Positions 18,672 to 48,159 of a stretch of 64,000 nt of DNA are shown one piece after another. The stretch is from the NCBI GenBank assembly GCA_964187785.1, contig OZ076421.1, positions 58,032,001 to 58,096,000 of the forward strand, read 5' to 3'. The position numbers were made by a program, and so were the translations under genes. Numbering within the stretch: the stretch's first letter is position 1; the number at the start of each line of letters is the position of its first letter. The notes under the pieces are model-generated. The model was not told where the DNA came from, did no database searches, and saw only the letters and a program-made list of their open reading frames with translations. This stretch comes from Amphiscolops sp. MND2022. Taxonomy: Eukaryota.

Positions 18672-19972
18672 TCATTCTGGCTCTGGAAAATCAGGCAGAG
18701 GCTCGCAGTGAAACTGTGTGCGGAACCTCTTTCCGCCTTGGATTGTTTGACATAACAAGCTAGCCCGCTCCCCTTGCTCTCTGCCATACTTATAGCGAAT
18801 CCACCCGCCCATGTCCCAGTACTGCCAGTAAACTATGATGTCTGTCTGTAGCACCCAGGCTGTAGCTAATATCTAAATAGTCCACATGTCAGTCTTGTGC
18901 CTTGCATCTATCTACAATTTTGTCAATATGATTAATAGTTCATACCGCGGCTTCAGATATGCTCGCCGTGACTTTCGCACACTCATTAGCCAAAAAGTAG
19001 TTAGGAGCAGTGACCAGACAATACTCCTTAAACTCATTGGTCTGCATGACTTCTGTAGCTGCCACCCTGATACCTTTGCATTTTCGTCCTGGTGCACTGT
19101 CCTTACGATCTAAGTGCATATTTCATACATTTGTATATTTTTTTCTCAATTTTATATGTGCATGTATTTTTCTTTACTTGCTTCGTCTGCACATACCTGA
19201 TTTTCGACCACAGAGTAAATGATAGATGCTTGAAAAGAAGCATTCCAACCAACTTCAGCCAACTTCCCCAGTGACTCCTATTTGCCAGGATTAGTTAGGT
19301 CCACGAACACATTGGACACACGCGAAGATGATAAGGCCTCCCACATGCACGTATATCCAAACTTATCGCATAACTCGATACGTCTGGCTAAGGACAAGGG
19401 CAGATGCTTCTGCACCTTCTTCCCCTCCTCACTGTCAAAGTAGCATGTTTGACAGTTTCTGAGGAACCTAGGAAGAAAAAATTATACTTTTCCTTTTTTC
19501 TCTCTTTCTCGCCTTCTTTTAAAAAAACACAAAAAAAACAAAAACATCAATAATTTTTTTAATATATCAAAGATTGGTGTACTCACTCTCCTGCTAAAGC
19601 TTTCAGCCCACCGAGAGCAGCTGGGTATGCCACTCTAGCCTCTGACAGGGCATCTATGTGCATCTGCACTCCACGATAGTGCTTTCTTTTTCCCACGGTC
19701 TCGTTCTTCTTCCAGTCCTTGATATGTACCTTGTACAATATGTTGTCGACTTGTTCTGGTGTAGGAGCGGGAATATACTCATTACGCCGCCCTTTGTACA
19801 TCAAAATGCCCCTCTCCACCTTGAGACTTCGGCACAGTTTCTTGAAATTCTCGCGTTTCTGAGATGTTTTCAGCACACTGCTATCCAACACAGCTTCATT
19901 TAGATACTTGACGATTGCTTCATGCAAAAATCGATCTATGTTGAAATCGAAAACAATTGCAAATGTGGTCAC
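18672..19972 (-). pseudogene. Antisense four-exon gene: integrase-type H2C2 zinc-binding domain fused to an OTU-like cysteine protease
   Basis: Exons ~19972-19587, 19467-19197, 19109-18946 and 18872-18672, separated by GT-AG introns with consistent phases. Motifs ILYKVH...KHYRG...FLRNCQTC, GWN(C)FFSSIYHLLCG, ILATAWVLQTDIIVY and FHCEPL. One TAG (19280-19278) and one 1-nt deletion (~19241). Confidence 0.75.
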
Positions 19973-20967
19973 TACTACCTACTTTTTCATAATCTTTTTT
20001 CACGTTCCTTTTCTTCTGCCAACTCTTCAAGTCACTATGGCGCGCCGACGCATGATTTAGACAAAATCAACAATAAAACTCCTTTGACTTTGGACAGCCA
20101 CAGATATTTTTTTCCTTTTTTCTCTTTTTGTACATTTTACACAAGACTAGCATTCATTGTACACAAGTCTCACTTTTACAAAATTATCACTATAGTAAAA
20201 CATCTTTTTCTTTCAATTTTAGCCTTGACTGCTTTCTTACACTAGTTTTCTACTCTGCATTTTTTTCTTTCTTTCTCCTCAGTTTTTTTCTCTTTTTTTC
20301 TTTTTTTTTCTTCTTTCTATTTGGTTTCTTTGCGCCCCTCTTTAGTCAATTTTCATCTTCAGCAATTTTTTGTCTTTTTGGATCTGTGTAGTTTCGTTTT
20401 CTTTTTCGTTGCTGTACCATTTTTCTTTTTCTTTCATATATCTTTTTAGCTTTTCGTCCATTTGTTCTTTTCATTTTTTTCTTTGCCGTTTTTTTCTTAC
20501 TTTTTTTCTTTTTGGAACAAACGCCACAACACGTACAAATGAGCGATGGTCGCCAGAACCACCCCCACACAACTCAACCCCCACTTTACGGAGCTGGAGT
20601 AAATGAAGCTCTATGGAGCTGGAGTAAATGATGCTGGAGTTTTATGAAGACTAAGTAGTAGAACAAACTATTCTCTAGCTCGAAAAATTGACAATTGACT
20701 ACTTTTGTCCACACCAATATGATATACGAACTTCTTTTGTTTTTTCTATTCACATATGCCACACGCCACATCCGGTTTAAATACCATGGTACAAAAATCA
20801 CATTCCTTATTTACATGATCACGCCCGATGGTATTCGCCACTACAATAACGAACTCCTTCTCTTTGAATTATGCAAACAAACACGCCACTTTGTGCTTCT
20901 TTTCCTTCTAAAAAAGAATAAATACCAAATTTCAATTCATTCATTCCATTCAACATCACAATAACCT

Positions 20968-23160
20968 TTGACATTCAACGACTTGCTTTCGTTCAACACC
21001 GAATTGTTAAAAGTGACTTGGATTTGTCTGATTCTTTTTCTCCCATTTTTGGGCAACTCACAATCTCCCATTTCCGCCTTTGATGACTCTGGTGGTCCTC
21101 TCAAGAAAGGGATCATCTTCCACGAAAACAAGAAAGTCTTAGTTGCTGAAAAATTCATCAACGTTGAGTTTTTGCTTCCATTTCCCAAGTTCGCAGTATA
21201 CATCAAATCTGATCTTGAGCACATCTTGTCTGTCTTGGCAACCATGTGGGACATGCCGACCTTTAATTGTTACTTGAATTTCACTAATGTTTCTTTGGAA
21301 GGATTCCACGTCAATTGGCTCCTCACGGAAGTCCAAAATGAAACACAACTGACAGAAAACGCCTTGAATACTCTACAATTGGAAATTGCCACATTCTTGC
21401 ATCCTCCTTTGCCTCCTTCCCAACATGATCGCCCTCGTCGTGCCATTCCTCTGGCAGCTGTCGCTGTTGGAGCGATTGGACTCTTCAGCACTGGAATTGC
21501 AATGGGAAGTTGACTGTTGATTGCTTGGAATTTTTGGCACTTGCCCATCACAGAAAAATGCCAATGCGATCAACCGCATGTTTCACATGACCGAGAACTT
21601 GGCCGCTAATTTACAACATCTGCAATCGGCTACTAATGAAAAATTTCTTATTGTGGGACAGGAGTTGAAGGCCATTCGAGACCTACAGGCTCAGATGATT
21701 GAAGTGCAGAATGCTAACTGGCATACGATCTCTCAACAACTTGAGACCTTTCGTCACGACATCCACGAGATGCGCAATTGTGATCAGTTGCTCTTCACTA
21801 GACAGCAAATCAATCTTAATTTTGATACCATCGCCTCGTTGCTCTCGCTCTTCTACTCTAACGTCGAGTCCTACCAATCAGCTCTTTTTGCATATCGTTT
21901 GAATCTCCTTAACAGTATTCCAGCTCTCCTTGATAAGTATGTTCCGATCTCTTTATTGGATCGTTCATCTTTGGAACAAGTCCTTAATGTGGTTCAGGAC
22001 ATCCAAAACAAGGCCACGGATCGCCTGACTCTGGCCATTCCCTATCAAGAGACCCTTTCTTCATACGAAGCTCGTCTTCTCCAGGATTTAGTAGCACTTC
22101 CTGATGGTTTCCTGATCAAGATGTCCATTCCTCTCGCCTCACGTCAAACAGTTCTCAACACATGCGAGGCTATTCTGATTCCCATGCCTCAACTTGATGA
22201 CTCTGATGCCATGAGTTGGTCCCTCGAAGCTGACTTCTTAGCAGTTTTCGAGAATGGCCGTGAAACAGCCGGTGTTACCCGTCACGATCTTGAGTCCTGT
22301 ATTGGGTCATCCCGATACAGCATCTGTCAACAGGGTCTAGCAACGGAAGGCCTGGGTTCTTCTTGCCTCTCTTTGCTCTTCTTCGGCAACCAGGTCCAGG
22401 CCATGAAGATTTGCGACCTCATCCCTTGCAAACTTCCCGTTGTGGAACGCGCTGTCAATTTGCGCTTTGGGATCTGGCTGATCCTCTCAGCCATTGCCGA
22501 TTTTGAACTCCGAGAGTCTATGGCCAACGACAAGTCTCATATGTCCGCCAAAGTGTACCCTGGTTGCAGAATATGTATATATACTTTACCGTGTGGACAC
22601 CAACTTCGAGGACCGAATATCTTCATTCGTTCAGATCTCCAATCTTGTTCGAAGGTCCCTTCCATCGAAATTCATGTTGACGTTCCAGTCCCCTTGTTGG
22701 ACGTCCTTAGTGCTCGTCCGTCTCTCAATGAACTACTATCATCAATACGAAGTCTTTAGCCAATCTGGACTTTCTTCGATCCTTGAAGCATGAAATGAAA
22801 TACATCTCTCCCACGGCTCTCGAAACACCTGACGCTCTTCGAACATTGGCTCAACCCATTGTCCTGAAGATGACAGACTTGAAAAATGCGCTTAAATGCG
22901 AGTTCAGTCATACCCCTACATTTAAAACAACTCTAATATTGGGACTCGCAAGCTTTTTAATTTCGATGCTACTACATCTACTCTTTATGTGTATATTTCA
23001 TCGCTATCACAATTTGCACAAGTTTATGCCTTTTAAACATACTTTGAAAACTAAGGACGAAAAGATAAAAGTTCCTCTCCATCCCGTCCTTTCGGTCCCT
23101 TCTGACCATGTTGAAGCGATACGGGCAGACCCGAAATTTCGCTGGCGTAATAAATGTTGA
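20968..23160 (+). pseudogene. env: Env-like class I fusion glycoprotein (paramyxovirus F-like architecture), ~730 aa, two frameshifts
   Basis: Hydrophobic signal region WICLILFLPFLGNS; furin site RPRR followed by AIPLAAVAVGAIGLFSTGIAMG; heptad region with ATNE; Cys-rich CIGSSRYSIC; TM LILGLASFLISMLLHLLFMCIF; sequons NFT, NVS and NET. Confidence 0.85.
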
Positions 23161-29023: not shown

Positions 29024-29793
29024 TCCTCATTTTGTTGAGAGAACTGATTTAGAAAGTGGTAAAATGAGCAGAAGCTGTTAAAATTTGAAAAAAAATTATC
29101 TTTCGTCGTGCATGTTTGGAAAAGTAGTTATTGAATGCGCTCGTTAGCCGATTCCACGATATGATTTTGATGTATTTTTCGAGTAAATTAGACTTCGTAA
29201 GTAGTTCACATTGGACTCAACTTCCACTGAGGGGTGCAATGGAGTCCGGGCAATGTTCAATGCAGATTTATGCTGTCAACACCCCAAATGTTCTTTAAGT
29301 GGAATCCACTGAAGAAGCCACGAAGCGGCCGTTCGGCACTGTTTTGGACTTATAAGTTCACTATTTTAGTTGGTACTTGATGAAAGCTGATCAAAGTTCT
29401 GTAATACTTTCCATTGCTTTTATATTGGTTAAATTGTTGTATTTGCTTAAAAAGGACAATAATTTAGCGCAGGGGAAAAATAAGCTGACAATTCATTCTC
29501 GTTTCAAGTTTTAGTTTTATGAGTTCGGATATTCATTCGACATTCATTAGCAACCCGAAGTAAATCTTTCAGAAGAACTATGATCACAAACAATTTTCAA
29601 CAGAGTTTGTCAACAGAGTAAACTATTGAGATCAAACTAAATATTGTCCTACTTTCACAACCATTTGTTTCAGCTTTCTCAGCTGTTGGTAACCAATGTA
29701 TTCAACCTTTGATTGAATTTCTACGTCTGATATTCAATATCCTTCAAAATCAAGTGTTCAAGTCTCCAAGTTTAGGAACTGCGAGATAGTGTG

Positions 29794-30096
29794 ATGAATC
29801 TCATCAGCGCCACAATTTTGTTGATCATTACAATTACAAGTTTTGTATTAGAAGGCTCTTGTATAATAGGGGGTCATCTTGCGCCTGATTATCCCTTTTT
29901 TGTGACTGTTAAGTTCAATGGGAAAACGTGTGGTGGTACAATTGTGGCTTCCAATTCAATCCTAACTGCGGCCAGATGTATTTTTGACGAGGGAACGGGC
30001 ACTTTCGCCTGGCCGGACGAAATAGAAATTAGGAAACCAGTGGCCGGCCAGATTCCGAGACAGTTATCTTGTCAAACATACATATACCACAATCAG
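29794..30096 (+). CDS. Trypsin-like serine-protease homolog, exon 1
   Basis: Signal peptide, IIGG, CGGTIVA and LTAARC (catalytic His replaced by Arg); phase-0 donor CAG|GT at 30096/30097. Confidence 0.8.
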
Positions 30097-30739
30097 GTTA
30101 AACTTTCAGACATATTGAGTCAATTCAAAACCGCGCAAAAAAGCACTTTTGGTTATTTTTAAAGTTCCAAACGTCGGGGAAAAGTTTTGGAAAAAAAACT
30201 GCTATAAATGATGAGATTAATTTGACTGCACATTGTTATAGAAGCAACCCAATTTTCCATTGAAGCATTTCAGATTGAAAACCTTACCTTCTTGGAAACT
30301 TGCGTGAAAAAGAAGTATTTCAATAGATCCAATATGGATCAAAATTTCCAAGTAACATTTTCGAGAACAATTTCACTCATGCAGACTCGACTTTTCGGGC
30401 TGCTCGCAATCTCATTGGATAAAAATGGAACTAGCACGATTGTTGTAGAAAAGTTCTACAGGCATGAAAATTAGGACGCATTGTATTCCTTTTCCTCCCG
30501 CGCGTCGCGGCGGCGGCATTTGTATTATTTAGTCACAAAGCGTAGCACAGTATTTGCATAAAGCACGTGACGAATACCGAGCACAAAAGTTGAACAATAT
30601 ATGAATACAATCACAGCATACTCACTGAGGACGACTTAAAATTAATAAAAGGAACATACTAACGATCGGCAACGTATACTATTTTTCTTTCAATCTCCTA
30701 ACCGCCATACAATGATACTCCCCTCATGACTCCAGATAT

Positions 30740-31479
30740 CTACAAGCTAAATAGATACTTCCGTGTGTAGGTCCTTTGTGACATCCGCGGTACACAATCC
30801 ACTCGCGTGACCGCTCGAAGTATTCGTAGATCGTGACTCCAAGCTCGCGAGCGATGACGCGTGTGTCGGTCTGTGAGAGGAAGTATGTGTCCCCAGGACC
30901 GTCGGGGGGAAGTCCGCACCCAGTGCTGAATGGCCACCGCCGCTTTGATACTCCCGGTCAAAATAACGCTTAAAGTAGTGCAGACACAATTATGAGGACT
31001 CGGGCAATTAACTAATTTCGGTCTAAATTTTGAAGCATCACTTTCCTCGTGATTGCTCGTTTTAAAATGCTTCATCCATTTAATGCCGATCTTTCTGCAT
31101 AAAAATTTTCTCTTCTTTTTGGAACAATGAACCATAGGACCACTCCGTCGAACGGGGATACGGGAGTCAGCGCAAAAGGAACAATTAGCTACAATGTCTG
31201 CACATGCAAGTCTCAAATAAGGAACGATAAAAATATCACGGGCACGAAGGTAAAGATCATTTGCAGGGGGTGGCTCTCTCTTTCATGTAAACTCCGTAAG
31301 TGATCCTCGATCTCATCAGAGAGTAAAATGCGGCGGCACCCACAAAATAATCGCCCGTCAATAAATTGGCACTGCTTAGCTTTCCGTCTGAGGGATCTTC
31401 GGTCATTCAGGGAAAATGTAGGCGGGAAAGTTTTTGAAGTAAAATACAAAACGAACGCCAAAAAGAGTTCTTTATCCAT
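30740..31479 (-). pseudogene. Antisense LTR-encoded protein with an integrase H2C2 zinc-binding domain and no catalytic core
   Basis: ATG at 31479. MDKELF...SLRRKAKQCQFIDGRLF...LRSLHERESHP, then across a 1-nt frameshift (~31265) ANDLYLRARDIFIVPYLRLACADIVANCSFC. Confidence 0.7.
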
Positions 31480-31716
31480 GATGCAAGTTTTCACGTGAAA
31501 TAGATATCAACTGTTTGTTGTAAGGTGAATGGAATAAACTGACTGCGTACGCACGTGAGTTGCGCACTATGCTAGCGCTCGCTACGGGAAGGCCGCTACA
31601 ACGCTGCGGAAGGGATTATTACGTCATGAATACAGGGAACCTGCTCCGCTAGCCGCAGCAACTTGTGACGTCACAGCAAATGGAAAATAGGACATCAGAT
31701 TTTAGTATTTTTGGGA

Positions 31717-32175
31717 CCTGACCACTTTTTTCCTCGCTAGCCCTTTTACCTTAAAAATGGTCCGATTTAAATGAAATTTGACACGAATATAATAGAAGGC
31801 ATGTGGAAACTACATACAAAATTTCAGCTCGCTACGACTACCGCAACCCTAGTTTTTTCAACTCGGAAGTGGGCTATGTCAAAAAGGTTCTCTGCAACCC
31901 GACCACTTTTTTCCGCGCTAGCCCTCTTACCTGAAAACTTGTCCGATTTGGATGAAAATTTGCACAATTATACTACTGATCAATGAATACCTACTCGTAA
32001 AATTTGATATTCGTACGCTCACTTTTTTCCTTGCTAGCCCTTTGGCCCTAAAAATCGTCAGATTCGAATGAAAATTGGCACACTTGAATTAAAGATAATC
32101 GACCACCTACATGCAAAAATCCAGATTGCTAAAACCACTCCGAACCCCCGTTTTCGAACCCGGAAGTGGGTGAAT
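31717..32175. repeat. Three degenerate ~130-190-bp tandem units inside the LTR
   Basis: Recurring CACTTTTTTCC..GCTAGCCC...AAAA..GTC(C/A)GATT...ATGAAA.TT.G.CAC at about 31720, 31903 and 32021; mirrored in the 3' LTR. Confidence 0.6.
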
Positions 32176-33979
32176 TGACATTAACCGGAAGTTCTAGAAA
32201 TAACCCTTAAACCAAGTTCCAGGGCCCATCATTATCGCCCAAACGGAATGAAAACGCCTCTCAACTAAGTATGGGTCATTTCGAAATAGTTTTTTGGTCG
32301 TTTGACCCTAAATAAGCTCAAACTATCGAAAATTCGGAAACCCTAAAACCCAAAACCAAAAAAATCATTCAAACTTGTTTAATTCAACAAGGGGGGGGGC
32401 ATCATGAAGCTTATTTTTACCACCCTATTAGTCGTTGGGGCATTGGAAATGTCCGGGGAGATCCAAATTGATCCTGGAAACGGGAAACGGTATATTCGAG
32501 ATTCGAGAAAATAACCCTAACCCTAAATTTGGAAATGACCCATACGGCCGTTGCAAATAGTGGTGTTGTATATCGATCGAAACGGCGTCGTGTCCCGAGG
32601 CCTATTAAAGTGCCCATTTTTCAAATTTCAACCAATTTGATTCATTTTTCCTTTTCTAGGGTTTTTCAAGAGAAAATCGGGTTCTACATATATTGAGATT
32701 AGTGATCGGAATTTTTCAAACTTCGAATGACCTAAAATAGCATGATGCTTATATCAGCGCGACTACGGAATTCTCCAAGCAGCGTTACGCAAAACCTCAT
32801 TAATTATGCAGATCGCATTACGCTCCGCCAGCTGCAGATAAAGTATTAGCAAAGCAAGCCCCTTTACAGTGCGGCGAACGCTCTTTCAAGTGGAACACTT
32901 TTGTTTATTGCAATTATGTAGCCTCGAGGAACAATTTATCTATTGCTTCTGTATTGAGCATATTTAATGACGTTGAGCTATTGAACAACTGCGGGAAGCT
33001 GACAGCTTTATTGATATAATAGACTGCGAGGCGCCGATGCGACTCTGTCAGCTGCATTAATGAGGCCGCTTGTGTTCTTTACTGTTCCACTTGAAAACGC
33101 AAGCGTTAAGATGAAAAATAGATTAAATACGATGACAAACAAAATATCTAATAAAGCCCGGCAGTTCATGCTGATCCAGATAAGCGAAAACCGATAAATA
33201 ATAAAAATTTTGCAGAGAAGCAATAAAAAAACCGACGCCCTCGGACGCAATAAAATAAAAAAAAACGAAACCGGCTCGTCGGAAACGAAAGAGGAGAGAG
33301 AGAGAGACAAACCGTGTAGAGAATAGTTGTGTGCTCAGAGAAGAGAAAATAGTGAAAAAAGAAAAACATTGAGAGGCCGGGCCCCTCATACAGAAAATAC
33401 CACATACATTTTTGCTTGATTGTCTAATTAGTGAGCTGAGAAACACGTTGAACCCAACCCCATTCAATTAACGTTGTTTGTATTGATTACCCGGTGCCGC
33501 TCGTACGCACCTGTATCTATTTGGAAGCATTTTGTGTTTGTGTATTCGAGTAGTTACTTTCCATATTTCTCACCCGTATTTATTTGAAGCACTATTGTTA
33601 TTCGTGGGTACACTGTGTTTAAATATAAAGAAACCCCGTTTATTTGAAGTCTTGTTTGCTGAATATTCCCGCTATCCAGGGAAAAGTAGTGTTTCTTTCG
33701 CTTTCAAAAAGAATAATTGATTGTTGTGTGGCGTTCTTTTGCCAAACAAGAGCCGAGGCCCTGATAGAGACAGGTCGAACTCAGAAAAAAGGGAAAAACT
33801 GATTGAACGTTGAATAACTGGAACCTTTTCTGCCCGTTGCTGCCTGCTACCTTTCGGTATAAAAAAATCTTGTGGAACACCTAGCTCTCGATTCGCCTCG
33901 TCGAGAGTGTCGCGACTCAAATAGGTGTTGATTGTCGGTCGCAGTCATAAAAAAAGCCGGGCCGACAACTTTTCTACAG

Positions 33980-33997: not shown

Positions 33998-34428
33998 CAC
34001 CAACGCAGCAGCAACCAGTTATTAGCGTCATTATTTCTCAACTTTCCGAGATAGTTTGTGAGCTTGTTATACTTGTTTTGTTAGTTACTTTTCTGATAGC
34101 GATTACGATTGCTTTTACCGCCTGGAACAGAGTTAGAGATTCCATTGAATTCCCGTTTAGATCATTCAAGTCTACCCTAGTTTACCCGAGTTTTGGATTT
34201 ATCCATTGAAAGTGGATCCCGAAGACGTCTATTTTGAATTTGCATTTCCTTGCTTGGGAATTGTTTATTGCCCGTTAACGATTGGATCAGCCATCATTCT
34301 TTTGTGGTTTGCTTACTTGAGATTTGTTATCTGGCTCATTCTTGAACTGCCTTACGACCGGGAGACAATCGCTTTCGTTATCGACGTTATTGGTCCAGAG
34401 TTAGCAGACAGCTGAGCAGAGCAACGAG

Positions 34429-35768
34429 ATGTCACTCGATCAACGCACCCCGAAGTCGGTGTGGGACGATGAGTCTGACCACGAGCAGTCCGGAAGTCAA
34501 AGTCATGGCCTCCTGCAAGAAGCATCCTCGAGACAAAATCAATCTGGCAGCAATGCGAACAGCCCGTCGAAGGATGCTGAGCTGGAGCAACTACGCAGTC
34601 AAGTGAAGGACCTTTCCGTTGCTATGGAAGGTTTGCAGAAAGGCAAGCGGAGGCTAAATTTCGCTACTAGATCGTCCGGTGTGAGTCCAAGTCAGCGCCC
34701 ACCGACTGCAGAACGGGAACCCCAAGTGCTGCTGGCCTTGCATCCTGAACGATTCCCCTCCAAGGACTACCCCAGCTGGCGAATGTGGCAGCAGCACTTC
34801 CGCAGCGTGTGTCGCGCCAACGGTTGGAGTGATGCGAAAAGCCTGCAGGTCTTAGCAGCTATTTTGAGTGGCTGGGCTACTGATGAATTCCACTCTGCAC
34901 CTGAGAGATTCCAGAATGATCTCGCTGAGATGTTGCAATTTCTGAAAGGCCGCTTGTCACCTTATCGGAATGAACGCATCTCACGGGGCGAGTTCAAAAA
35001 CTTGTATCAAGGGGCCGAGGAGACATTGAGCGAATTCGCCCGCAAGATTCGGAATGTGGGGAATCGCGCTTATCCCGAGGTGGCAGTGAACCAAAGAGAT
35101 CAGTTTCTACGCGAGCAGTTCATTGAAGGCTTGTACGACATGGACGTACAAGTAGAGTTGTTGAAGGAACCCGAACAGGACGTTTGGAGACCTTGACACG
35201 TGCCCAACAGCTTGACTCAATCCGCAGAACCGCGCGAAACAACCCAAGGCGCCGAACGCAAGGTCACGTGCGGTTCGTCGCAGTAGACGAAACCCAAGAA
35301 GAGAGCTGCCACCGACTGCCAGAGAAAAGCAATGCCGTTGCTAGATCCCCGACACCCCCTGGTGAGAAGAGCCTGGCCTCTGAGGTTCCCATTGGTGAGA
35401 CCTTGGCGGCAATTCAGACGACGCTTGAGTTGCAGCATAAGGCAACCACTTACAACCAGTCGCTGATGGAGAAAACCAACACGAGGCTGGACAGGCTGAC
35501 CGAGCACACTGTGAATAACAACGAAAAACTGACTTCAGCGATCGAAACTCTAACCGATGCTATCAAGACGCTGACAACCCAGTCGACGAAGCAACTATAC
35601 GATCCAAACAAAGATCGCGGGAGATACGGATGGAAAGGAAATGACGTGTCCCCAGCGCGAGACCGCCCTCCACTTAATATGGCGACAGTCGATTGTTATC
35701 AATGCCACCAAAAGGGACATTTTGCTCGGGACTGTCCCAATCAGCAGCAGAGTGGTCATTTAAACTAG
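34429..35768 (+). pseudogene. gag: Gag with CCHC knuckle; one frameshift near 35185
   Basis: WRMWQQHFRSVCRANGW...REQFIEGL, then CYQCHQKGHFARDC. Confidence 0.9.
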
Positions 35769-38700
35769 TCAGGGCTGAGCAAAGCTCGGGGTTGCCAACC
35801 TCAGCCCAGCAAAAATCAGATTGCAATCCAACCCCTGCGTCAACCAGCACCCAGCCCCAATGCAGCGATTTCCCCAATGCCACCCCGACAATCCTGTCAA
35901 AGCAGAGCTGCAGACCAATTGTGTTCGAAAAAGCTGCTGCTCCTGAACGCGAAGAAATCGAGCAGCGGTTGTGCACCCAGATTGAGGTGAAAATTCCTCA
36001 AGGGCCCAGTTTATTGGTGCCACTGATGGTCGAAAACGAAAAGAAATGGTCCCTCATTGACACAGGTGCCAGCTCGAACTTGTTGTGCAAGAAATTACAA
36101 GAACAAGTAGGGGGCACCCTTGAGCCCTACGGTGGAGTCGTCGTCGATCCAAAAGGCGAACCCTTACCCATCATTGGAGTCACCCGAGTACGACTGAATG
36201 TGGCAGGTCTGGTGACAACCGAGAAGTTCTTAGTCATGGATGGTCTCAACCCCGATGTTATTGTTGGACTACGGTTCCTGCTGGAGAAATGCTGTCAACT
36301 AGACTGGCAGCACTGCTGTCTCTGGCTAGAGGGCGGTAAACGAAGGGCACCCATGACAGTAGCAGGCCCCCTAATGCCAAATGACCCGGACCCGATCCTG
36401 ACACTTTACGCCACGTCCAACCCAACGTCCCCGACTGTGAAATACCAACCAAACCAGCCCCAGTCAGCTTCCCCCGAGCCGGTGCTGGGCGCAACTGAAG
36501 CTGGAAATGAAAACCCATCCTGCATCGAGGGAACACCAGTTTCAGTTGGCAATCTGCCTCAAGATGCAGAAGAATTCAGAGGCGGTTTCATTAGTGAAAT
36601 AGGGTTCCGGAAGCAACGGGAGATACCCTGGGCAGATGTCAGAGACGGAAAGGTCAGATTCCGAGGCAGAGCCAAAGGCGTCGTTTCTGCGAGGCGATGG
36701 GCATCCACCGTACGGTCTGTATCACCGAAAAAGACCCAGCGACGATCCTCGATTCCTCGTTGTTTCCGATTGCCTGAGACTTTCGAGAGCTCGTCCACTG
36801 CAGACATGGAAGCCCAACAGACGCAACTCGGAGCAGACGTGGAGACAATTTTGCAATTGACTGCCCCTGATGCGGAAGAAAGTATGAGGCAGCGTCTCAG
36901 GCTTCTGATCGAAGAGTTTCGCGATGTGTTCGCGCTCATTGAATCTAACAACCCACCGCATCTACACCGGATGGCTCCCGGCAAAATTCCAGAAATGAAG
37001 GCGGAGGTTCAAGACATGCTGAAGCGGGGGATCATCAGACCCTCTAAAAGCCCTTACAGTTCGCCCATAGTGATTGTGAAGAAGAAAGATGGAGCCAACC
37101 GATTCTGCGTCGATTACAGAAAACTCAACGAGATCACGCGAAAGGATGCTTTTCCAATACCGCGGATTGAACAGACACTCGACGCTTTGGAAGGTTCCAG
37201 CTTTTTCTCCACTCTGGATTTAGCCTCAGGCTATTGGCAGGTCCTAGTGGCGACAGAAGACATCCCAAAAACAGCTTTCGTCACCCCAGATGGCGGTCTG
37301 TACGAGTATGTGAGGATGCCCTTTGGTTTGTGAAATGCTCCAGCTACATTCCAACGCCTGATGAACGAAATCTACGGCGACGCATTGTACAAATTCGTGA
37401 TAGTGTTCCTTGACGATGTTTTGGTGTACAGCAAAACAGAAGACAGTCACTTTGAACAGTTGCGGGGAAACCTTCACAAGGTTGCGAACAGCTAATCTGA
37501 AACTGAAACCCAAGAAGTGCAACCTCTTCCAGAGAAAAGTGGGCTACCTCGGGCATGTCATTGATCAAGCTGGCTCACGACCTGACCCTGGGAAATTGGA
37601 CGCACTGCGAACGTGGCCCCAGCCTAATACAGTCACTGGTGTCCGGTCGTTCCTCGGATTTTGCAGTTATTACCGCAAATTCATCAAGGGATTCGCAGAA
37701 ATCGCTAGACCCCTGCACGAACTGACGAGGAAGGTATTGAAACTCACGTGGCTGCCACATCACACCGCGGCCTTCAATGAGCTGAAAGATTGCCTTTTGA
37801 AGGAACCCACCATCAGTTTTCCTGACTTCAACCAGCCCTTTGTCATTGACACAGACGCAAGCGACAACAGCCTTGGCGCAGTGCTGTCCAATGTGGTCAA
37901 TGGAGAAGAGCGCCCCTTGGCATACATGATTAGGGTTCTCTCAAAAACAGAAACCATGTATTCCACCACAAAACGCGAAGCCTTGGCCGTAGTACAGGCA
38001 CTGAAGTGGTTCAGATCATACATCCTTGGCCTCAAAGTGATCATACGCACGGACCACGCTAGCCTCAGATGGATGCCTTTCAGAATGGTCCAGAAGCTCC
38101 AGGAGTATGATTACGCGATTGTACACAGGCCAGGAGCGAAACATGGGAACGCAGACGGACTGTCTCGTCGAGAAGACCCGAAGGAGAATTGGAAAGAAGG
38201 CGACTTTGAAGTTCTGTTGGGTCCCTGTCCCGAGCCGACGACATACGAAGAAGCCCTGGAGGAAGTTCGCGACTTCCTCAAAGTGGTCAAGGAGCTGCAG
38301 GATGCCCGAACACTCGACTCACCCCATGAGCACCCCGAAGAACCCGACAGCGGAGCATGCAGAACAATTCAGGCTTCGAGTTTCAAAGTCGACCCAGTCA
38401 TGGAATTGGACGACTGGTTCTACGATTCCGGTCGGTCGATGGTGCAATGTGTCACAGCGGACTTTCGGCTGATCACAGTTCATCAAAGAGACCCTGTTCA
38501 CGATCCCTTCCTAGAAACCCTAATCCAAGGACTGAAGCGTCAACCCATGCCTGGGGACACACTGGCTGTACGTGACATGGAATCGTCTTGCTGGTGGTTC
38601 TACATGATCACCAAGAAGTTTGCCTGGGAGAAAACCAGTTATCGAACTCTGCGGGAGTGCCTCTCCCAGCTACAGCGATTGATGGAGGAAAGTCACGTTT

Positions 38701-40933
38701 ACGAAGTGAGCATGCAGAGAATTGGTAGCCAGCCCCCCGACTTTCTAAACTGGTGGCAAACCCGTGGGCTCATCTCGGAAGTGTTTACCGGTAGCCCTAT
38801 GCTGGTCTGGGTGCACTATGGCGGTCCCGAAGGTAACGATCCCACGGAACTGTGCAGTGCCAGCCAAGAGGTGCACACACCCACTATGACCGAAAATTCA
38901 ACCATTGGTACAGAAAGCTACGAACGAACCCCTTCAACTTCCGACGCAATTAGTTGGGTCCTCGTTCCGTGTGATGTGCGAAGCGCTCAGAGAAACGACC
39001 CCCATATCGGAATCATTTTCAAAATGATCAACCTGGAGCACGACGAAGCTGACCTCGTGGACCTCGGAGAAGTTCCGTTCACGAAAGCTGAAGCAATTGG
39101 ATACGGAGATGAAGTGGTTACCCACTGGGGGCAGTGGCCACAACTTACCATCCGCAAAGGTATTCTGTATCGATACTGGCAAGAATCTTCAGACGCTGAA
39201 AAAGTGTTTCAACTGGTGCTGCCCCTCGTGCACCAGAGAGATGTCCTGGACCAATTACATGACTCGCCAGTTAGCGGAGGTCACTTTGCGGTCGAGAAGA
39301 CGCTCAACCGAATACGACAACGTTTCTGGTGGCCGCAAATGCGCCAACATGTGGAGAAGAAGGTGGAACTTTGTATCCCGTGTGCAGCGAGACGCACCGC
39401 GGGGAAGCGACGGACGGCTGAGTTACAACCTCTTCAGGTGGGAACGAGGTTCAACACAGTCGCAGCCAACATACTTGGTCCTGTAACGAAAGGGGGAAAA
39501 ACGAAATGCAAATACGTTCTGGCTATGACGGACCTCTTCACAAAATACGTCGTGGCAGTACCTCTGAAAGACCTAGACGCTAAGGAGGTAGCCAACAGTT
39601 TAGTGGAAAACTGTGTCCTGCGATATGGCGTGCCGGATGTTTTACACACGGACCAGGGCACAAACTTCAACAGTGACCTGATGAAGGAGGTTTGCAGCTT
39701 CTCCAAATCGACAAAAGTCGGACAACTGCATATCACCCTGAGGGAAACGGTCAAGTGGAGAGGTTCAACAGAGTGATTGCCGATACCATCTCGAAATACT
39801 GTGCGGAAAACCCAAGAACATGGGACAAATTTCTGCCCTATGTGACTTTTGTCTACAACACCACGGTTCACAAGACGACGAGAGCAACCCCTTTCAGTCT
39901 GGTATATGGACAGGAGTGCCAGTACCCGATTGATTTGTTTTATCCCAAGCCAATAGACTACGAATACAAGGAGGGGGCTGATTTTGCTGCTCAACTTCAC
40001 GAGACGTTCCGCGAAGTCCAAGCTAATGCTCGGCAAGTTTTGGGAAGCACTCAGCGTAGGCGAAAAGACCTCTATCACAAGAAAGTTTATGGGGAACCTT
40101 ACAAGGAGGGGGATAGAGAGTGGCTGTTCTCCCCTCACAAAGCCAAGTCAAGAAAGTTTTTCCTGCCTTGGGAAGGACCGTATGTGGTGGAAGAACGATT
40201 GAATGAGGTCATCTACAAGGTGTGGAAGGAGTCTAAGCCATCGAAGTGGTTCACCGTCCACTTCAACCGACTCAAGCCCTACAAGTGTTCCCAACCAGAA
40301 CACAGACAGTTCAATAGGCCACGGCCTCAAGCCGAGGAAGTCGCTTTTGACTACGGTCTGTGGGGGGAACTCACTCCTAGAGCTAGACACGCCTTCACCA
40401 CCGCCCCTACCCGAAGAAAGAACGCCGCTCCGCCAGTTCCCAGGGAAGAACAACCATCGGAGCCAAAGGGGTTGAATTTGACGGTCAGTGTGCCGGACAT
40501 GGACTATGAACAACCCCCATCAATTTTCACCCCTTCAACCCCCGTCCCTGGTAGCGCCCTGCCCCCCTACACTTTCATAGACGACCCTTCTCCCACACTG
40601 CATTGAATATTTGCAGACAGCCATCAAGCTGACGAAAATCCTGGAGAGCATGGATCAGCGACACCGCTAGTGCTTGAACAAACAAAACCACAACATCAAG
40701 CGGATAGCGAGCAGAGCAGGTGCTCACTGCATGAGTCACCACAGCAAACGCAAGGAAGCGAGGAACGCGACGATGAACGACACGGGAATGCTCCAAGTCA
40801 AGGGACACATGCTAGCGACCGAGAGCTCGGAGAGAACGGAGCTGGCGAGGATGAAAGTCAGCGCGTTGATACAGTGACGAGCCGGCCGAAGCGAATGCGC
40901 TTTCGTCCGGTACGCTACGGAATCTACGACTAG
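35759..40933 (+). pseudogene. pol: Pol (PR-RT-RNase H-macrodomain-IN) with stops and frameshifts
   Basis: LIDTGAS; FCVDYRKLN, LDLASGYWQ, MPFGL*NAPATFQ and FLDD; DTDASD, KREALAV and TDHASL; LHDSPVSGGH...CIPC, HTDQGTNF and GQVERFNR; tail RPKRMRFRPVRY. Confidence 0.95.
38415..38820 (+). CDS. TARG1/Poa1-type macrodomain inserted in frame between RNase H and integrase
   Basis: SMVQCVTADF...PGDTLAV...FYMITKK...SYRTLRECL...VSMQRIG..PDFLNW...LISEVF aligns by eye with recalled OARD1/TARG1 motifs SLAHCISED, YYLITKK, LSMPRIGCGLDRLQW and IEEVF. Confidence 0.8.
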
Positions 40934-41182: not shown

Positions 41183-44100
41183 ATGCAGTTGATCATCCTA
41201 TGTTGCTGCCTTTCCTTCCTTTGGCATCCCATCGTCAGCGAAGACCTGTAAGACTGGGATGTTCATGACCTATCTTTTAAACAATCTGAACGCATGGCTT
41301 CCACCTTTTCCAACAGCACCCACTCAGTGTCTGGAGCTGCTTTCACCCCCGAAGGCACAGTGATCCTGACAACGTCCATGAAGGGAACCTGGGTGTACGT
41401 GCCATTTCCAGAAGTGCCAGCATTGAGTGGGGACTTCGTCAAAGCGATGGTGAAAAAATTCGACTCTGCCATCTCGAGTACCTTTGGCGCACCCGATCGA
41501 GTCTGTAAGGACACAGGGACTTTGGGAAAGACTTTCCCGCTCTTTTATGGACGAGCCCTGGGCGAACTCTGGCGGAGCCTCAACAGGTTCTCAGCGGATC
41601 TGGATGCCATTCGACGAAGTGCTACAGTTTTTGTCAACAACACTGGCCACACTGAGCTGTCAAGAACAAGGCGAGTGGTGCCTCACCTGGTAGCAGCCGC
41701 AACAGCCACGATTTTTGAACCCGTTCTACGGAAAGTGGGATGTGCTGTTTTGTCCCCAATTGGTTTCTGCAGCAACCCCAGGGCACAAAGAATTGAGACT
41801 CTTTACGCCCAACTACGCCATCTCGAGGGCAGAGTCCGCCAACTGGAGGAGGGTGCATGGCTGACCCATGTCGTGGAACCCCCGAGGGACGCGAAACGAT
41901 GGGTTGAACCTGTGCTCTCCCTGAATCGCTCCATAAATGAGGGAAAATTGTTGAGCCTCGTTCCCTGCATGGAGGACCTTGTGAAAATAAATGGACCGCT
42001 ACCTCATTTGTGCCCCCAACCACAAAACGAGTGAGTTTGAGATGAGTGCCCTCCACTTGGGACTCTATGACAACATAACATCCACGATCGGCGCCATGGC
42101 TACGGAGATTGACCAGAGAAGAGTAGCTCTTCAAAGTATTGGATCCTTGCTTCAGGATGCCCTGGGATCCCTGGTTCATGGGTTTCTGCCAACCACATTA
42201 ATTCCCCGCCTACTACAGTTTCGATATAGTACGGGAAACGTACATTTCGAATAGCGGACTGCACCTTCTTCTGGAAATTCCGCTGCACGCATCAACGGGC
42301 ATGCATTCGGTCATGAGAGCAACACCTTTGCCGCAACCGAGGTACCGCCACCCAATACAAATTACAAAAAAACCTCTTACTTCTGTCGTGGGATCGCACC
42401 AACTTTGCTGAGGTCAGTGAGGAAAAACTGTTGGCCCATTGTCAAGGCACTGGCCCGCTGAAGTTATGCAAGAAGCCCTTCGCCGCTACTGTCTCTCAAA
42501 GGACTACTTGCTTGACTGGACTTTACTTCAACTTTCCCGCTCTTTTATGGACGAGCCCTGGGCGAACTCTGGCGGAGCCTCAACAGGTTCTCAGCGGATC
42601 TGGATGCCATTCGACGAAGTGCTACAGTTTTTGTCAACAACACTGGCCACACTGAGCTGTCAAGAACAAGGCGAGTGGTGCCTCACCTGGTAGCAGCCGC
42701 AACAGCCACGATTTTTGAACCCGTTCTACGGAAAGTGCGATGTGCTGTTTTGTCCCCAATTGGTTTCTGCAGCAACCCCAGGGCACAAAGAATTGAGACT
42801 CTTTACGCCCAACTACGCCATCTCGAGGGCAGAGTCCGCCAACTGGAGGAGGGTGCATGGCTGACCCATGTCGTGGAACCCCCGAGGGACGCGAAACGAT
42901 GGGTTGAACCTGTGCTCTCCCTGAATCGCTCCATAAATGAGGGAAAATTGTTGAGCCTCGTTCCCTGCATGGAGGACCTTGTGAAAATAAATGGACCGCT
43001 ACCTCATTTGTGCCCCCAACCACAAAACGAGTGAGTTTGAGATGAGTGCCCTCCACTTGGGACTCTATGACAACATAACATCCACGATCGGCGCCATGGC
43101 TACGGAGATTGACCAGAGAAGAGTAGCTCTTCAAAGTATTGGATCCTTGCTTCAGGATGCCCTGGGATCCCTGGTTCATGGGTTTCTGCCAACCACATTA
43201 ATTCCCCGCCTACTACAGTTTCGATATAGTACGGGAAACGTACATTTCGAATAGCGGACTGCACCTTCTTCTGGAAATTCCGCTGCACGCATCAACGGGC
43301 ATGCATTCGGTCATGAGAGCAACACCTTTGCCGCAACCGAGGTACCGCCACCCAATACAAATTACAAAAAAACCTCTTACTTCTGTCGTGGGATCGCACC
43401 AACTTTGCTGAGGTCAGTGAGGAAAAACTGTTGGCCCATTGTCAAGGCACTGGCCGGCTGAAGTTATGCAAGAAGCCCTTCGCTGCTACTGTCTCTCAAA
43501 GGACTACTTGCTTGACTGGACTTTACTTCAACTTGGTGTCGGTTGTCCTGAAGTTGTGCGATCAGGAGGTAATCCCCCTGCCTCAGCAACCGCAGGCAGA
43601 ATACCTGTACGACTCAACGTACTTGCTCACATCGGCAGATGGGAACTTTTTGATGCAGAACTTCACGGAAGGAAGAAAGGCACAGAAAATGAACGGATGC
43701 CAGAGTTGTCTAGTGAAACCGTCATGCAACGGACGAATCCAACTGCCGAGCGGTGGGCTTGTGTTGCGACCCGACCCTCAGACATGCCGAAACGACGGCG
43801 AAGGAGCGGTCAACATTCTGCCTGCACCACAGCTGCTAGCCATTTTCGGAGCCTTGGCAGAGATCTCCCAAGAAGTGCCTTACTCCCTGGTGAGTGACCT
43901 GCAGGCTGAGATCCTGGACCACGTCCGCCTCAACCTTGCCCAGCTGAACGACGCCGATCTCACTGATGCTGCCATTGAAAGTGTGGTCGAGCCATTCATC
44001 GACCAAGTGCGGTTGGCCCATGGTGTCGGTATGAAGTGGCTCATTCGGCGAGTAGTCCTTCCAGCAGTTTCGGGAGTCTTCGCTCTGACCCTGACCGCGG

Positions 44101-44411
44101 GATGCCTCTACCTGAGTCGACAACCAATCCGTCACGCCCTGCAGCGCGGGGTGAGGTCAGTGCGCCGGAGGAACGAGAGACGAATCATCCGGCAGAAGCG
44201 ACAACAACTACAGGACGAAGCTCGTGCTGATGCGGAAGCGGTGCCCCGAATACACATGCGGGTGCGCCAAATTGCAGCGGAGAGTGAACGACCAGCGACA
44301 AGTGAGGCGACAGTGGCAGAGCTCCATGACCCAACGCACACATCGGCGAAGGTACCCCGAAGAAAGGGTGGAGAGCCGGGCGAGAAATGCAGATCAGACG
44401 AGAAGCCGTGA
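41183..44411 (+). pseudogene. env: Env-like class I fusion glycoprotein, disrupted by stops and a 1-kb duplication
   Basis: Signal peptide MQLIILCCCLSFLWHPIVS; furin site RTRR followed by VVPHLVAAATATIF; AHCQGTGRLKLC; GCQSCLVKPSC; TM VVLPAVSGVFALTLTAGCLYL. Confidence 0.85.
41531..43530. repeat. Tandem duplication of exactly 1000 bp inside env (41531-42530 / 42531-43530)
   Basis: Paired ORFs are offset by exactly 1000 nt; ACTT microhomology at 41531, 42531 and 43531; only a few substitutions between copies. Confidence 0.95.
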
Positions 44412-45163
44412 CCCGCAAGTGGAGATATGGTGGCCGTTAGTAAGCCTGCCAATCTTCAACAACCTTTTTTTTTACAAAACTCTTTGCATGTTAATTACAA
44501 AACTCTTTACATGTCAACCCTTGTAGAACCCCCTTCTGCCTCACTATTGCTTTAAAACACATTGATTTCTAGGAAAAAGAAACTGATGGACCATTTTTTT
44601 CTTCAAAGAAAAAAATACATATACGTACATAAATATTCAAAAAAAACCTCGCACTTTCGAAATCCCCGGCGAACTTTTCTTGTTATCCGCAAATTTTTTT
44701 TGCATCATTTTTTTTCTTGTCTATTTCTTTTATTGTTTTTTTTGCAAAAAAAACAGTCCAGGCATAAATTTCAATGCCTGCACATACGAAGTATGACTCA
44801 TACGAACTCAATAGATATTGGACACGTGATTGTAAACGAACAAAACGGCAGGCTTGAATTCTTAATGAGCGAGATGTAAGCTAACTGAGAGCATTTTAGT
44901 TCACTTGAAGCGGAATGCATTTTTGTTAATCCCCCGACGTTTACTTGCGTACGCAGCTGCAGCTGTAAGTTCACGTCACGCGTGAGTGCGATGACTAATG
45001 CTGTTTAATGAACTGTCGCTTGCACTACTCGTAATCACCGCGCTCCCCGGCCATAAATATTTTCTCCGCAACCGTAATCAGTCGCTTTCATTCTAGACAA
45101 AACTTTGTTTCTATTCTTTTCTCAAAAATCTTCGCCTCCGATAAATAAAGAAAAAAAACTACA

Positions 45164-45724
45164 ATGTCCACCGCTCAGAACAGCTGCCCAGCTATCCAAT
45201 CAATCCTCCCTCTCGATATCCTGCCCTGCACCGTCAAACTGGGTGATAACTGGGTCCGAATTCACGAGTTTGCAGCGCCAACAAGCGACGCTGACGCTGA
45301 GGCGTACATCCTGATGGACAAGTGGGAAAATGGACGGTGGAAATCAGACCCTCAAACTTTGAGCATCCACGATGAATTCTTATGGGATTTAGCAGCTCTG
45401 CTGTTGGAGGTCAGCCTCCGGAAAGGCGACCGGGTGCGGATGTGTTTGGCCTTTGTCCAGTTCCTGACACAGCCCAGCGTGCCAGCGAACGACGACCATC
45501 CGGAGTCCGCGGGCAACCTCCCACAGTTTGGGCTAACCAGCTCAGTAGGCAGGGCGCTGATTGATGCGAACAACCAGCGGGATAAAGCTCGCAGCGCTTG
45601 GATGCGGGAGTGGCTCGCACTGTTAGCTCCGCGCAATGAGGAGCCGCAGCTGCCACCCTATGCCGCAGAGCCGGGTGAAAACGAAACTGTGGTGACAAGG
45701 AACTCGGACCCGCCATCCAGTTAA
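45164..45724 (+). CDS. Intact orphan 186-aa accessory ORF between env and the 3' LTR
   Basis: ACAATG start to TAA; GC-rich coding block within AT-rich flanks; no lesions seen. Confidence 0.6.
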   Translation: MSTAQNSCPAIQSILPLDILPCTVKLGDNWVRIHEFAAPTSDADAEAYILMDKWENGRWKSDPQTLSIHDEFLWDLAALLLEVSLRKGDRVRMCLAFVQFLTQPSVPANDDHPESAGNLPQFGLTSSVGRALIDANNQRDKARSAWMREWLALLAPRNEEPQLPPYAAEPGENETVVTRNSDPPSS

Positions 45725-46075: not shown

Positions 46076-46087
46076 GGAAGGGAGGAA
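46076..46087 (+). promoter_or_regulatory. Polypurine tract of element 2
   Basis: GGAAGGGAGGAA directly before TGTAGAAAAG. Confidence 0.85.
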
Positions 46088-48105
46088 TGTAGAAAAGTTC
46101 TACAGGCATGAAAATTAGGACGCATTGTATTCCTTTTCCTCGCGCGCGTCGCGGCGGCGGCATTGTATTATTTAGTCACAAAGCGTAGCAGAGTATTTGC
46201 ATAAAGCACGTGACGAATACCGAGCATAAAAGTTGAACAATATATGAATACAATCACAGCATACTCACTGAGGACGACTTAAAATTAATAAAAGGAACAT
46301 ACTAACGATCGGCAACGTATACTATTTTTCTTTCAATCTCCTAACCGCCATACAATGATACTCCCCTCATGACTCCAGATATCTACAAGCTAAATAGATA
46401 CTTCCGTGTGTAGGTCCTTTGTGACATCCGCGGTACACAATCCACTCGCGTGACCGCTCGAAGTATTCGTAGATCGTGACTCCAAGCTCGCGAGCGATGA
46501 CGCGTGTGTCGGTCCGTGAGAGGAAGTATGTGTCCCCAAGACCGTCGGAGGAAACTCCGTAAGTGATCCTCGATCTCATCAGAGAGTAAAATGCGGCGGC
46601 CCCCACAAAATAATCGCCCGTCAATAAACTGGCACTGCTTAGTTTTCCGTCTGAGGGATCTTCGGTCATTCAGGGAAAATGTAGGCGGGAACGTTTTTGA
46701 ATTAAAATACAAAACGAACGCCAAAAAGAGTTCTTTATCCATGATGCAAGTTTTCACGTGAAACAGATATCAACTGTTTGTTGTAAGGTGAATGGAATAA
46801 ACTGACTGCGTACGCACGTGAGTTGCGCACTATGCTAGCGCTCGCTACGGGAAGGCCGCTACAACGCTGCGGAAGGGATTATTACGTCATGAATACAGGG
46901 AACCTGCTCCGCTAGCCGCAGCAACTTGTGACGTCACAGCAAATGGAAAATAGGACATCAGATTTTAGTATTTTTGGGACCTGACCACTTTTTTCCTCGC
47001 TAGCCCTTTTATCTTAAAAATGGTCCGATTTAAATGAAATTTGACACGAATATAATAGAAGGCATGTGGAAACTACATACAAAATTTCAGCTCGCTACGA
47101 CTACCGCAACCCTAGTTTTTTCAACTCGGAAGTGGGCTATGTCAAAAAGGTTCTCTGCAACCCGACCACTTTTTTCCGCGCTAGCCCTCTTACCTGAAAA
47201 CTTGTCCGATTTGGATGAAAATTTGCACAATTATACTACTGATCAATGACTACCTACTCGCAAAATTTGATATTCGTAAGCTCAACCAAGTTTGAGAAAT
47301 TGACGCCGGAACTAGGGTAGGTTGACAAGGGGCAAATTTGGACAATCCATGATGACCACTTTTTTCCTTGCTAGCCCTTTGGCCCTAAAAATCGTCAGAT
47401 TCGAATGAAAATTGGCACACTTGAATTAAAGATAATCGACTACCTACATGCAAAAATCCAGATTGCTAAAACCACTCCGAACACCCGTTTTCGAACCCGG
47501 ATGTGGGTGAATTGACAACAACCGGAAGTTCTAGAAATAACCCTTAAACCAAGTTCCAGAGCCCACCATTATCGCCCAAACGGAATGTAAACGCCTCTCA
47601 ACTAAGTATGGGTCATTTCTAAATAGTTTTTTGGTCGTTTGACCCTAAATAAGCTCAAACTATCGAAAATCTGGAAACCCTAAAACCCAAAACCAAAAAA
47701 ATCATTCAAACTTGTTTAATTCAACATCATGAAGCTTATCTTTACCACCCTATTAGTTGTTGGGGCATTGGAAATGTCCGGGGAGATCCAAATTGATCCT
47801 GGAAACGGGAAACGGTATATTCGAGATTCGAGAAAATAACCCTAACCCTAAATTTGGAAATGACCCATACGGCCGTTGCAAATAGTGGTGTTGTATATCG
47901 ATCGAAACGGCGTCGTGTCCCGAGGCCAATTAAAGTGCCCATTTTTCAAATTTCAACCAATTTGAACCATTTTGCCTTTTCTAGGGTTTTTCATGAGAAA
48001 ATCGGGTTCTACATATATTGAGATTAGTGATCGGAATTTTTCAAACTTCGAATGACCTAATAAAATAAAAAAAAATAAAAAAACGAAACCGGCTCGTCGG
48101 AAACG

Positions 48106-48159
<54 letters not shown>

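Follow-up and report, generated by a model that had tools for sequence, protein, structure and literature searches.

Antisense accessory genes with alternative predicted OTU or JmjC cargo in long terminal repeat retrotransposons of Amphiscolops

Why would a long terminal repeat (LTR) retrotransposon keep a gene that runs against its own coding strand? The question is raised by a stretch of 64,000 nucleotides from Amphiscolops sp. MND2022 (assembly GCA_964187785.1, contig OZ076421.1, positions 58,032,001 to 58,096,000 of the forward strand), hereafter the window, which contains the 3' end of one Gypsy element (unit 3) and two full Gypsy elements (elements 1 and 2). A sequence-only reading of the window had proposed that these units share an accessory module that pairs a zinc domain with a ubiquitin, ADP-ribose or SUMO effector. 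From searches of the 1.07-Gb genome we find that the module stands, in that the antisense genes of elements 1 and 2 are homologous and under purifying selection, and that the proposed makeup does not, since the macrodomain is a separate insertion and an alternative cargo, a JmjC-fold gene, is without the zinc domain. We consider it slightly more probable than its opposite that the antisense slot holds swapped, selected genes, either a Ginger1-derived integrase N-terminal domain (NTD) joined to OTU or a JmjC fold, that remove the ubiquitin or methyl marks of host silencing.

In element 1, the predicted antisense H2C2-OTU gene is confirmed as a four-exon gene running from 19939 to 18672, between integrase and env:

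19587..19939, minus strand: exon 1, with an integrase NED/YPYY-like region and both His of the zinc motif; the ATG is absent in the window copy
19197..19467, minus strand: exon 2, with both Cys of the zinc motif, a pre-OTU motif and the OTU Cys loop; the window copy is interrupted here by a frameshift and a stop
18946..19109, minus strand: exon 3, the helical part of OTU
18672..18872, minus strand: exon 4, the C-terminal OTU strands with the conserved His

The window copy is decayed, having lost its start ATG and the integrity of exon 2, and the gene is best seen in its relatives. Exon 1 has 148 matches in the genome, from which we picked 20 loci across identity classes. All four exons were matched at all 20, pol was present at 17 and env, at least in part, also at 17; at every sampled locus having pol, the gene is antisense and lies after the integrase. 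The three GT-AG introns are conserved across 23 copies (the 20 loci, two sister-clade copies and the window copy), with the start ATG and acceptor 1 each intact in 19, acceptor 3 in 18, donor 2 in 20 and donor 1 in 21; wherever exon 3 was located (17 copies), acceptor 2 and donor 3 are always intact. Intron lengths range from 63 to 136 bases, with a single outlier of 213. Selection was measured on 11 copies with stop-free exons, two of them with a frameshift near an exon end. Synonymous sites are saturated in 45 of the 55 pairs (pN, the nonsynonymous proportion, 0.19–0.40), and the six unsaturated pairs between subfamilies give a nonsynonymous to synonymous ratio (dN/dS) of 0.07–0.10, which is purifying. 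Four pairs within subfamilies give 0.14–0.65, as expected from decay after insertion. The predicted catalytic Cys of OTU is kept in 10/11 copies and the His in 11/11.

Element 2 carries its antisense gene inside the LTRs:

30679..31479, minus strand: intronless integrase-NTD and OTU gene in the 5' LTR, its frame disrupted by a short deletion and a frameshift
46322..46742, minus strand: copy of this gene in the 3' LTR, about half lost from the middle

An antisense open reading frame (ORF) in both LTRs had been recognized before; its description as H2C2-only fits these broken copies and not the family, in which 6 of 11 loci have open frames of 291–292 codons (283 from Met) that end in an OTU-like domain. 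A C-terminal query found a second group of about 40% identity; of 10 loci sampled from it, eight are complete elements with env, and each of the eight has the ORF in both LTRs. Across three LTR-gene subfamilies that are about 35% alike, the zinc ligands are largely kept, as are the Cys in an N-C motif and a late His; the predicted catalytic Cys is present in 12/13 rows and the His in all rows reaching the C-terminus in register. The dN/dS of the LTR gene is 0.07–0.47, and the ratios of the antisense genes largely refute neutral cargo. When the element 1 protein, entered with an X at each exon junction, was aligned with that of element 2, HHalign returned a probability of 97.4 (E=1.2e-11) over 268 columns, placing Cys on Cys and His on His; by this profile comparison the two genes are homologous end to end. 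The elements that carry them are far apart. In a quick tree of reverse transcriptases (RT), from which rows without RT or with <120 residues were left out, branches of 2.13+0.62 changes per column separate the two clades (row E2b_L177 is mislabelled, its RT coming from a neighbouring element). The two elements also differ in primer-binding site (PBS) and LTR size, as had been noted from the sequence.

An AlphaFold model of the element 2 protein (pLDDT 69) predicts two domains. At the N-terminus it resembles the integrases of PFV and Ty3 (VIA Z 8.7 and 8.6), and its C-terminus has a predicted OTU fold, with VIA Z 5–7 to OTUs (DUBA 7.1, with a root mean square deviation of 3.7 over 126 aligned; OTUD1 and OTUD3 6.8). 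The top 17 VIA rows comprise 11 OTU domains and four integrases, and viral OTUs are among the structural matches, scoring no better than cellular ones. Profile comparisons that link it to OTUs recognised by Pfam support the fold call. When 1.8 billion proteins were searched with a profile, 167 matched, of which 37 were scanned with Pfam: P0134 has H2C2, rve and OTU, the layout of Ginger1, and P0107 has H2C2 and OTU without rve. Both cargo profiles match P0134 at residues 1–139 and 500–656, including the motif just before OTU, and neither matches residues 130–430, where its DDE core lies. These matches are modest, at 9–20 bits, so that an origin from a Ginger1-type transposase is likely, not proven, and the cargo would be a derivative rather than a member. 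A word-index search returned close, nameless relatives only, and ESM Atlas gave no usable match for the element 2 ORF. Ginger1 transposases have a YPYY motif, H2C2 and a C-terminal OTU, in genes with GT-AG introns (Bao, Kapitonov and Jurka 2010, PMC2836005), and these features recur in the cargo, the introns in that of element 1; in contrast to Ginger1, an autonomous transposon, the cargo is without the DDE core and GPY/F and is an antisense passenger of LTR elements. As a separate observation, fish proteins (P0062, P0066, P0074, P0080) combine repeated stand-alone integrase H2C2 domains with THAP and D-aminoacyl-tRNA deacylase domains, so the integrase N-terminal module serves as a portable domain in other settings too.

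The slot of the OTU gene also holds a second kind of cargo. A sister of element 1, met through a macrodomain search, has in this slot a 358-codon antisense ORF with at least 150 relatives in the genome. Its model (pLDDT 78) has KDM2A as best Foldseek match (E=1.7e-7) and VIA Z 12–13.5 to JmjC proteins, with demethylases and hydroxylases within 1 Z of each other, and H-x-E, Lys and His are invariant in 9/9 aligned members. A JmjC fold with metal and 2-oxoglutarate ligand positions is predicted for this cargo. Pfam and PDB sequence searches found nothing for this first JmjC family; the cargoes of L279 and L285 are above the Pfam JmjC cut-off, and that of L281 resembles a degenerate JmjC. The dN/dS of the JmjC gene is 0.10–0.34, and the basic tails that end these cargoes suggest nuclear import. 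Ten sampled JmjC loci comprise four between pol and env in kin of element 1, three in both LTRs of element 2 kin and three after the pol of BEL/Pao elements. The genome has nine canonical OTU matches; the two examined are both antisense H2C2-OTU genes after BEL/Pao pol, above the Pfam OTU cut-off and with a canonical Cys loop. A conserved antisense slot gene is present in three unrelated retrotransposon lineages. The loci concerned are:

L219:8660-9733, plus strand, with L260, L262, L264, L266, L268, L270, L272, L278, L279, L283 and L285: antisense JmjC-fold genes of several subfamilies
L308:1005-2045, plus strand, and L309:5960-6934, minus strand, with L256, L258 and L274: BEL/Pao elements in which pol is followed directly by an antisense gene of H2C2-OTU or JmjC type

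How widespread is the cassette? With the env of element 1 as a cargo-independent anchor, we scored 131 of 860 candidates over the 6 kb upstream, counting against the OTU exon matches and 70 of the 150 JmjC matches. A listed OTU exon lies antisense at 66, a listed JmjC gene antisense at 18 and neither at 47, with none on the same strand; among the 64 closest env matches, 62 have the OTU gene antisense within this distance. From the 47 we took 20 by hand across ranks, and these were 11 of OTU type (one partial), four JmjC (two above the Pfam cut-off), one JmjC-like by eye and four env fragments without pol, so that cargo is present in 16/16 of these further elements having pol. The slot occurs independently of env: it is present in BEL/Pao and in a Gypsy family that has no env, and some enveloped lineages are without it. 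In some distant elements free of cargo, a DnaJ ORF in sense orientation or a GDSL domain is found instead. For example, L212:4213-5331 (plus strand) and kin at L300–L305 are enveloped Gypsy elements in which pol contains a canonical macrodomain and env is followed by a sense ORF with coiled coil and DnaJ (Pfam E=3e-10 for DnaJ). L298:1961-2986 (minus strand) is an enveloped relative of element 2 with a GDSL esterase ending pol and no antisense cargo.

Co-inheritance with pol lineages, also anticipated from the sequence, is borne out to the extent that cargo is confined to clades, and fails where close relatives differ sharply. Identity profiles per 500 bases of 18 element pairs show the cassette as an island of divergence inside near-identical backbones, which are 91–99% identical elsewhere. 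The pair U3_C3/U3_L221, for example, is 95–99% identical outside the cassette vs 14–75% inside, M213/M215 82–97% vs 6–66%, and b165/b171 94–99% across gag-pol-env vs 0–19% at the LTR gene; j264/j260 and M217/j270 are further pairs with a divergent island. In pairs of the unit 3 family, the synonymous proportion (pS) is 0.07–0.28 in pol, and the antisense exons have pS 0.7–0.87 and pN 0.14–0.35. More distant pairs of element 1's own clade are uniformly divergent, with no island. Such sharp divergence at the cassette of otherwise near-identical elements means that it was likely exchanged as a module, and the pattern fits recombinational exchange of old, selected cassettes. We are confident that selection maintains the cassette as an accessory gene and that it probably passes between elements as a module.

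The elements themselves are of Ty3/Gypsy type by their TG...CA LTRs, PBS, target duplication and the order protease, RT, RNase H, integrase, and both full elements have an errantivirus-like third ORF:

10880..11235, plus strand: element 1 5' LTR, TGT...ACA, followed by the PBS
11322..17696, plus strand: element 1 gag-pol in several broken frames, with Pfam RVT_1, RT_RNaseH and Integrase_H2C2
20965..23160, plus strand: element 1 env-like ORF, broken, with signal peptide, RxxR, hydrophobic peptide, heptad repeat and transmembrane (TM) segment
24322..24677, plus strand: element 1 3' LTR; 5-bp target duplication with one mismatch
30444..33978, plus strand: element 2 5' LTR, about 3.5 kb
34405..40933, plus strand: element 2 gag and pol, broken; pol domains confirmed by Pfam
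41252..44411, plus strand: element 2 env-like ORF, including a 1.0-kb tandem duplication (41531-42534 / 42531-43534)
45149..45724, plus strand: element 2 sense ORF of 190 codons between env and 3' LTR
46088..48831, plus strand: element 2 3' LTR, about 2.7 kb

The LTRs of element 1 are 356 bp each and 93.8% identical. Env hallmarks (signal peptide, RxxR/furin site, hydrophobic or fusion peptide, heptad repeat, TM) are present in elements 1 and 2 and in open copies. The env-like ORFs have no Pfam match, and a profile search against PDB gave just weak class I fusogen matches (E 0.02–0.5); from its sequence features that of element 1 is likely a class I fusogen. The 190-codon ORF of element 2 is kept in three other full copies and has no Pfam match. 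Between cargo and env of element 1 relatives lies a small antisense gene for a single-TM protein with a Cys-Cys motif, which accompanies OTU and JmjC cargo alike (L101, L095, L113, L117, L121, L215, L260, L264, L278, L279, L281, L285); 8 of 13 regions met the filter, and the window copy is degraded. Elsewhere in the window, a 39-bp tandem repeat at 8108-8625 has 13.3 copies with 98% matches and leaves several frames open, and a decayed Gypsy pol on the minus strand at 54709-57345 is distant from elements 1 and 2 and unit 3. A trypsin-like exon is found upstream of element 2 at 29776-30162 (Pfam E=4e-6) and again near 48832-48990, and element 2 may sit inside a host serine-protease gene.

Two further components had been placed in the module from the sequence, namely the macrodomain of element 2 and the genes of unit 3:

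38409..38819, plus strand: divergent TARG1/OARD1-like macrodomain in element 2 pol, in frame between RNase H and integrase, E=5.4e-6
1..2489, minus strand: unit 3 antisense zinc-finger gene, extending left beyond the window
3495..4388, plus strand: unit 3 sense ORF with a SIM-like (SUMO-interacting) motif at about 3636 and a C-x2-C
4300..5938, plus strand: unit 3 3' LTR, about 1.64 kb, inside which gag begins with the ORF at 5389

The macrodomain had been called correctly. It keeps the Lys of the ITK motif and, relative to canonical copies of this genome, is altered in both Gly-rich loops, which bind ADP-ribose in such macrodomains. As a part of the module it is ruled out, being a separate pol insertion that is absent from 8/8 full sister elements carrying the LTR gene and is present elsewhere without the cassette. 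Canonical macrodomains (150 matches of 742 candidates) occur in many other families, mid-pol or at the pol end, whether or not env or a cassette is present. A large family (L186–L210) has gag-protease-macrodomain ORFs of about 835 codons with a canonical TARG1-like macrodomain, and its members are likely non-autonomous LTR elements.

The antisense gene of unit 3 is under selection and has 8004 candidate genome matches. Its zinc finger is visible in the sequence as C-x2-C ... H-x4-H, with Pfam giving just E=0.004; in the family, 13/18 members have a weak C2H2 match (best E=8e-4). The zinc finger stands as described from the sequence, and the hAT derivation is unconfirmed: Pfam, PDB, ESM Atlas (last exon) and named homologues gave no hAT link. 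The SIM-like ORF is present, though on the sense strand, and a SUMO part of the module, which would rest on this one motif found in 3/5 family members, is not upheld. Nor does unit 3 belong to the enveloped architecture assigned to it, as no env match was found between integrase and LTR in unit 3 or six relatives.

What might the antisense cassette do? We put at about even the chance that it counters chromatin silencing. A Ginger1-type transposase gene would have lost its DDE core and become an antisense gene, whose introns could survive reverse transcription because antisense introns would not be spliced from the genomic RNA. The integrase N-terminal part may bind element DNA or chromatin and tether OTU there, the targets of the OTU and JmjC enzymes may be histones or silencing factors in the nucleus, and exchange of cassettes would reflect an arms race with host silencing. 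The alternation of two unrelated eraser-type folds in one slot points to host marks rather than element proteins as substrates. A broader version seems to us possible, at somewhat less than an even chance: Gypsy elements with and without env and BEL/Pao would share a pool of swapped counter-silencing proteins, comprising a chromatin-tethered deubiquitinase built from Ginger1, JmjC histone demethylases and zinc-finger proteins, and the swapping of cassettes between near-identical backbones would liken it to the anti-defence islands of phages.

Several results weigh against the chromatin-silencing role. The OTUs of elements 1 and 2 are very divergent, with no Pfam OTU match and no PDB sequence match; VIA Z 5–7 is a range that the tool calls common, and Foldseek of the two-domain model gave no match at E<=0.001, with integrases leading and OTUs lower down. 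The Asp of the canonical Cys loop, present in P0134, is replaced in the element 1 and 2 OTUs, with the Cys itself lost in a few copies. The JmjC substrate is left open, as the fold search ties demethylases with the hydroxylases JMJD5, JMJD6, TYW5 and FIH. In many element 1 relatives the antisense region also contains the small membrane-protein gene, which does not suit a role at chromatin. Pairs with different cassettes (unit 3; M213/M215) have near-identical LTRs, which speaks against strict sequence-specific co-evolution with the LTR. Neither cargo was found in nine distant elements from the element 2 env list, several of them seen only downstream of env, or in M211 and M217, so the cassette is dispensable in kin.

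Some of these points would suit other explanations. The cargo could be a replication helper, with the NTD binding the element's own integrase or pre-integration complex, OTU saving Pol or Gag from the proteasome and JmjC hydroxylating an element protein or RNA. The N-terminal domain is after all an integrase part, hydroxylases are among the top JmjC matches, and Ginger1 has its OTU on the transposase (PMC2836005), where it may act in cis. We nevertheless think this unlikely, since two unrelated enzymes occupy one slot in close kin, one cargo type serves both Gypsy and BEL/Pao integrases, and an integrase partner would not be expected to diverge or be exchanged, as the cassette does, beside a pol that is 91–99% identical. 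A little less likely again is that the cassette targets the host cell or competitors, by damping ubiquitin-based innate signalling, superinfection exclusion or self-recognition, with diversity kept by frequency dependence. Hyper-diverse cassettes on conserved backbones, viral OTUs among the structural matches and the small Cys-rich membrane protein gene beside both cargo types would fit such a role; however, cassettes also occur in env-less Gypsy and BEL/Pao, viral OTUs match no better than cellular ones, and the basic tails of the JmjC cargoes hint at the nucleus.

That the OTU and JmjC parts are dead scaffolds, and the proteins DNA- or mark-binding transcription regulators, akin to the DNA-binding role proposed for plant Retand antisense proteins, appears improbable: the divergent Cys loop, the degenerate-looking JmjC of L281 and a unit 3 cargo with a zinc finger and no recognised enzyme domain would suit it, but Cys and His are kept across subfamilies of about 35% identity and between both clades, and all nine aligned JmjC members agree at the metal and 2-oxoglutarate ligand positions. 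Functionless passengers, nested DNA-transposon or host-gene debris, might be suspected from the likely transposon donor and from the broken state of every window copy. This is largely refuted by the selection data and is very improbable, given a dN/dS of 0.07–0.10 with saturated synonymous sites, splice sites conserved while intron lengths vary, and a gene fixed in its clade at constant position and orientation.

Parallels to the cassette are known. In plants, Retand, Grande and RIRE2 Gypsy elements have a lineage-wide antisense ORF between pol and 3' LTR, for which a regulatory role has been proposed (PMC11963269); these encode TRP28 or unknown domains, whereas here interchangeable predicted enzymes are found in enveloped animal elements, inside LTRs and in BEL/Pao. 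Orchid Gypsy elements captured an AlkB m6A (N6-methyladenosine) demethylase, a 2-oxoglutarate oxygenase with demonstrated activity and a proposed counter-defence role (PMC9289625); in contrast, the oxygenase here is of JmjC class, occurs in many lineages and two superfamilies, and alternates with OTU. Fungal DNA transposons of unrelated families carry TET/JBP dioxygenases with a proposed anti-silencing role, and that study found no retrotransposon with TET/JBP (PMC12730594); in Amphiscolops it is LTR retrotransposons that carry the enzymes, and proteins that would bear the predicted marks. Ancient errantiviruses, env-carrying metazoan Ty3/gypsy elements, share with our elements the gag-pol-env layout and multiple near-identical copies; the words 'antisense', 'macro', 'OTU' and 'accessory' are absent from the main text of that work, whose supplements, outside our search, may list these elements (PMC13524379). 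Macrodomain capture as in element 2 has already been noted in fish endogenous retroviruses, along with other captured ORFs, as sporadic additions (PMC4977317, citing Basta 2009). LTR elements of bdelloids share ORF3 types (GDSL, DEDDy, TM) among distant retroelements, which is the same sharing of extra ORFs, in sense orientation there and as an antisense cassette here, with no OTU in the text of PMC5408684. Our literature search, with subscription journals, Repbase Reports and supplements outside it, found no description of an antisense H2C2-OTU or JmjC gene in LTR retrotransposons. Antisense extra ORFs and element-borne erasers are already known from plants and fungi.

How animal retrotransposons escape chromatin silencing is largely an open question, the known element-encoded erasers being those of plants and fungi. 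Most of the slot genes are invisible to Pfam, so annotation pipelines miss them. Even without a role in silencing, the Amphiscolops elements show that unrelated LTR elements have turned a gene probably taken from a DNA transposon into an accessory gene with introns, and that cargo probably changes hands at a slot whose place is fixed, much as complex viruses and phages are organised. If the broader version with a shared pool is true, these genes would be a first set of histone-mark erasers encoded by animal retrotransposons; if the silencing role is true, the list of cargoes would name the host marks that restrain the elements and provide small soluble enzymes that can be assayed directly.

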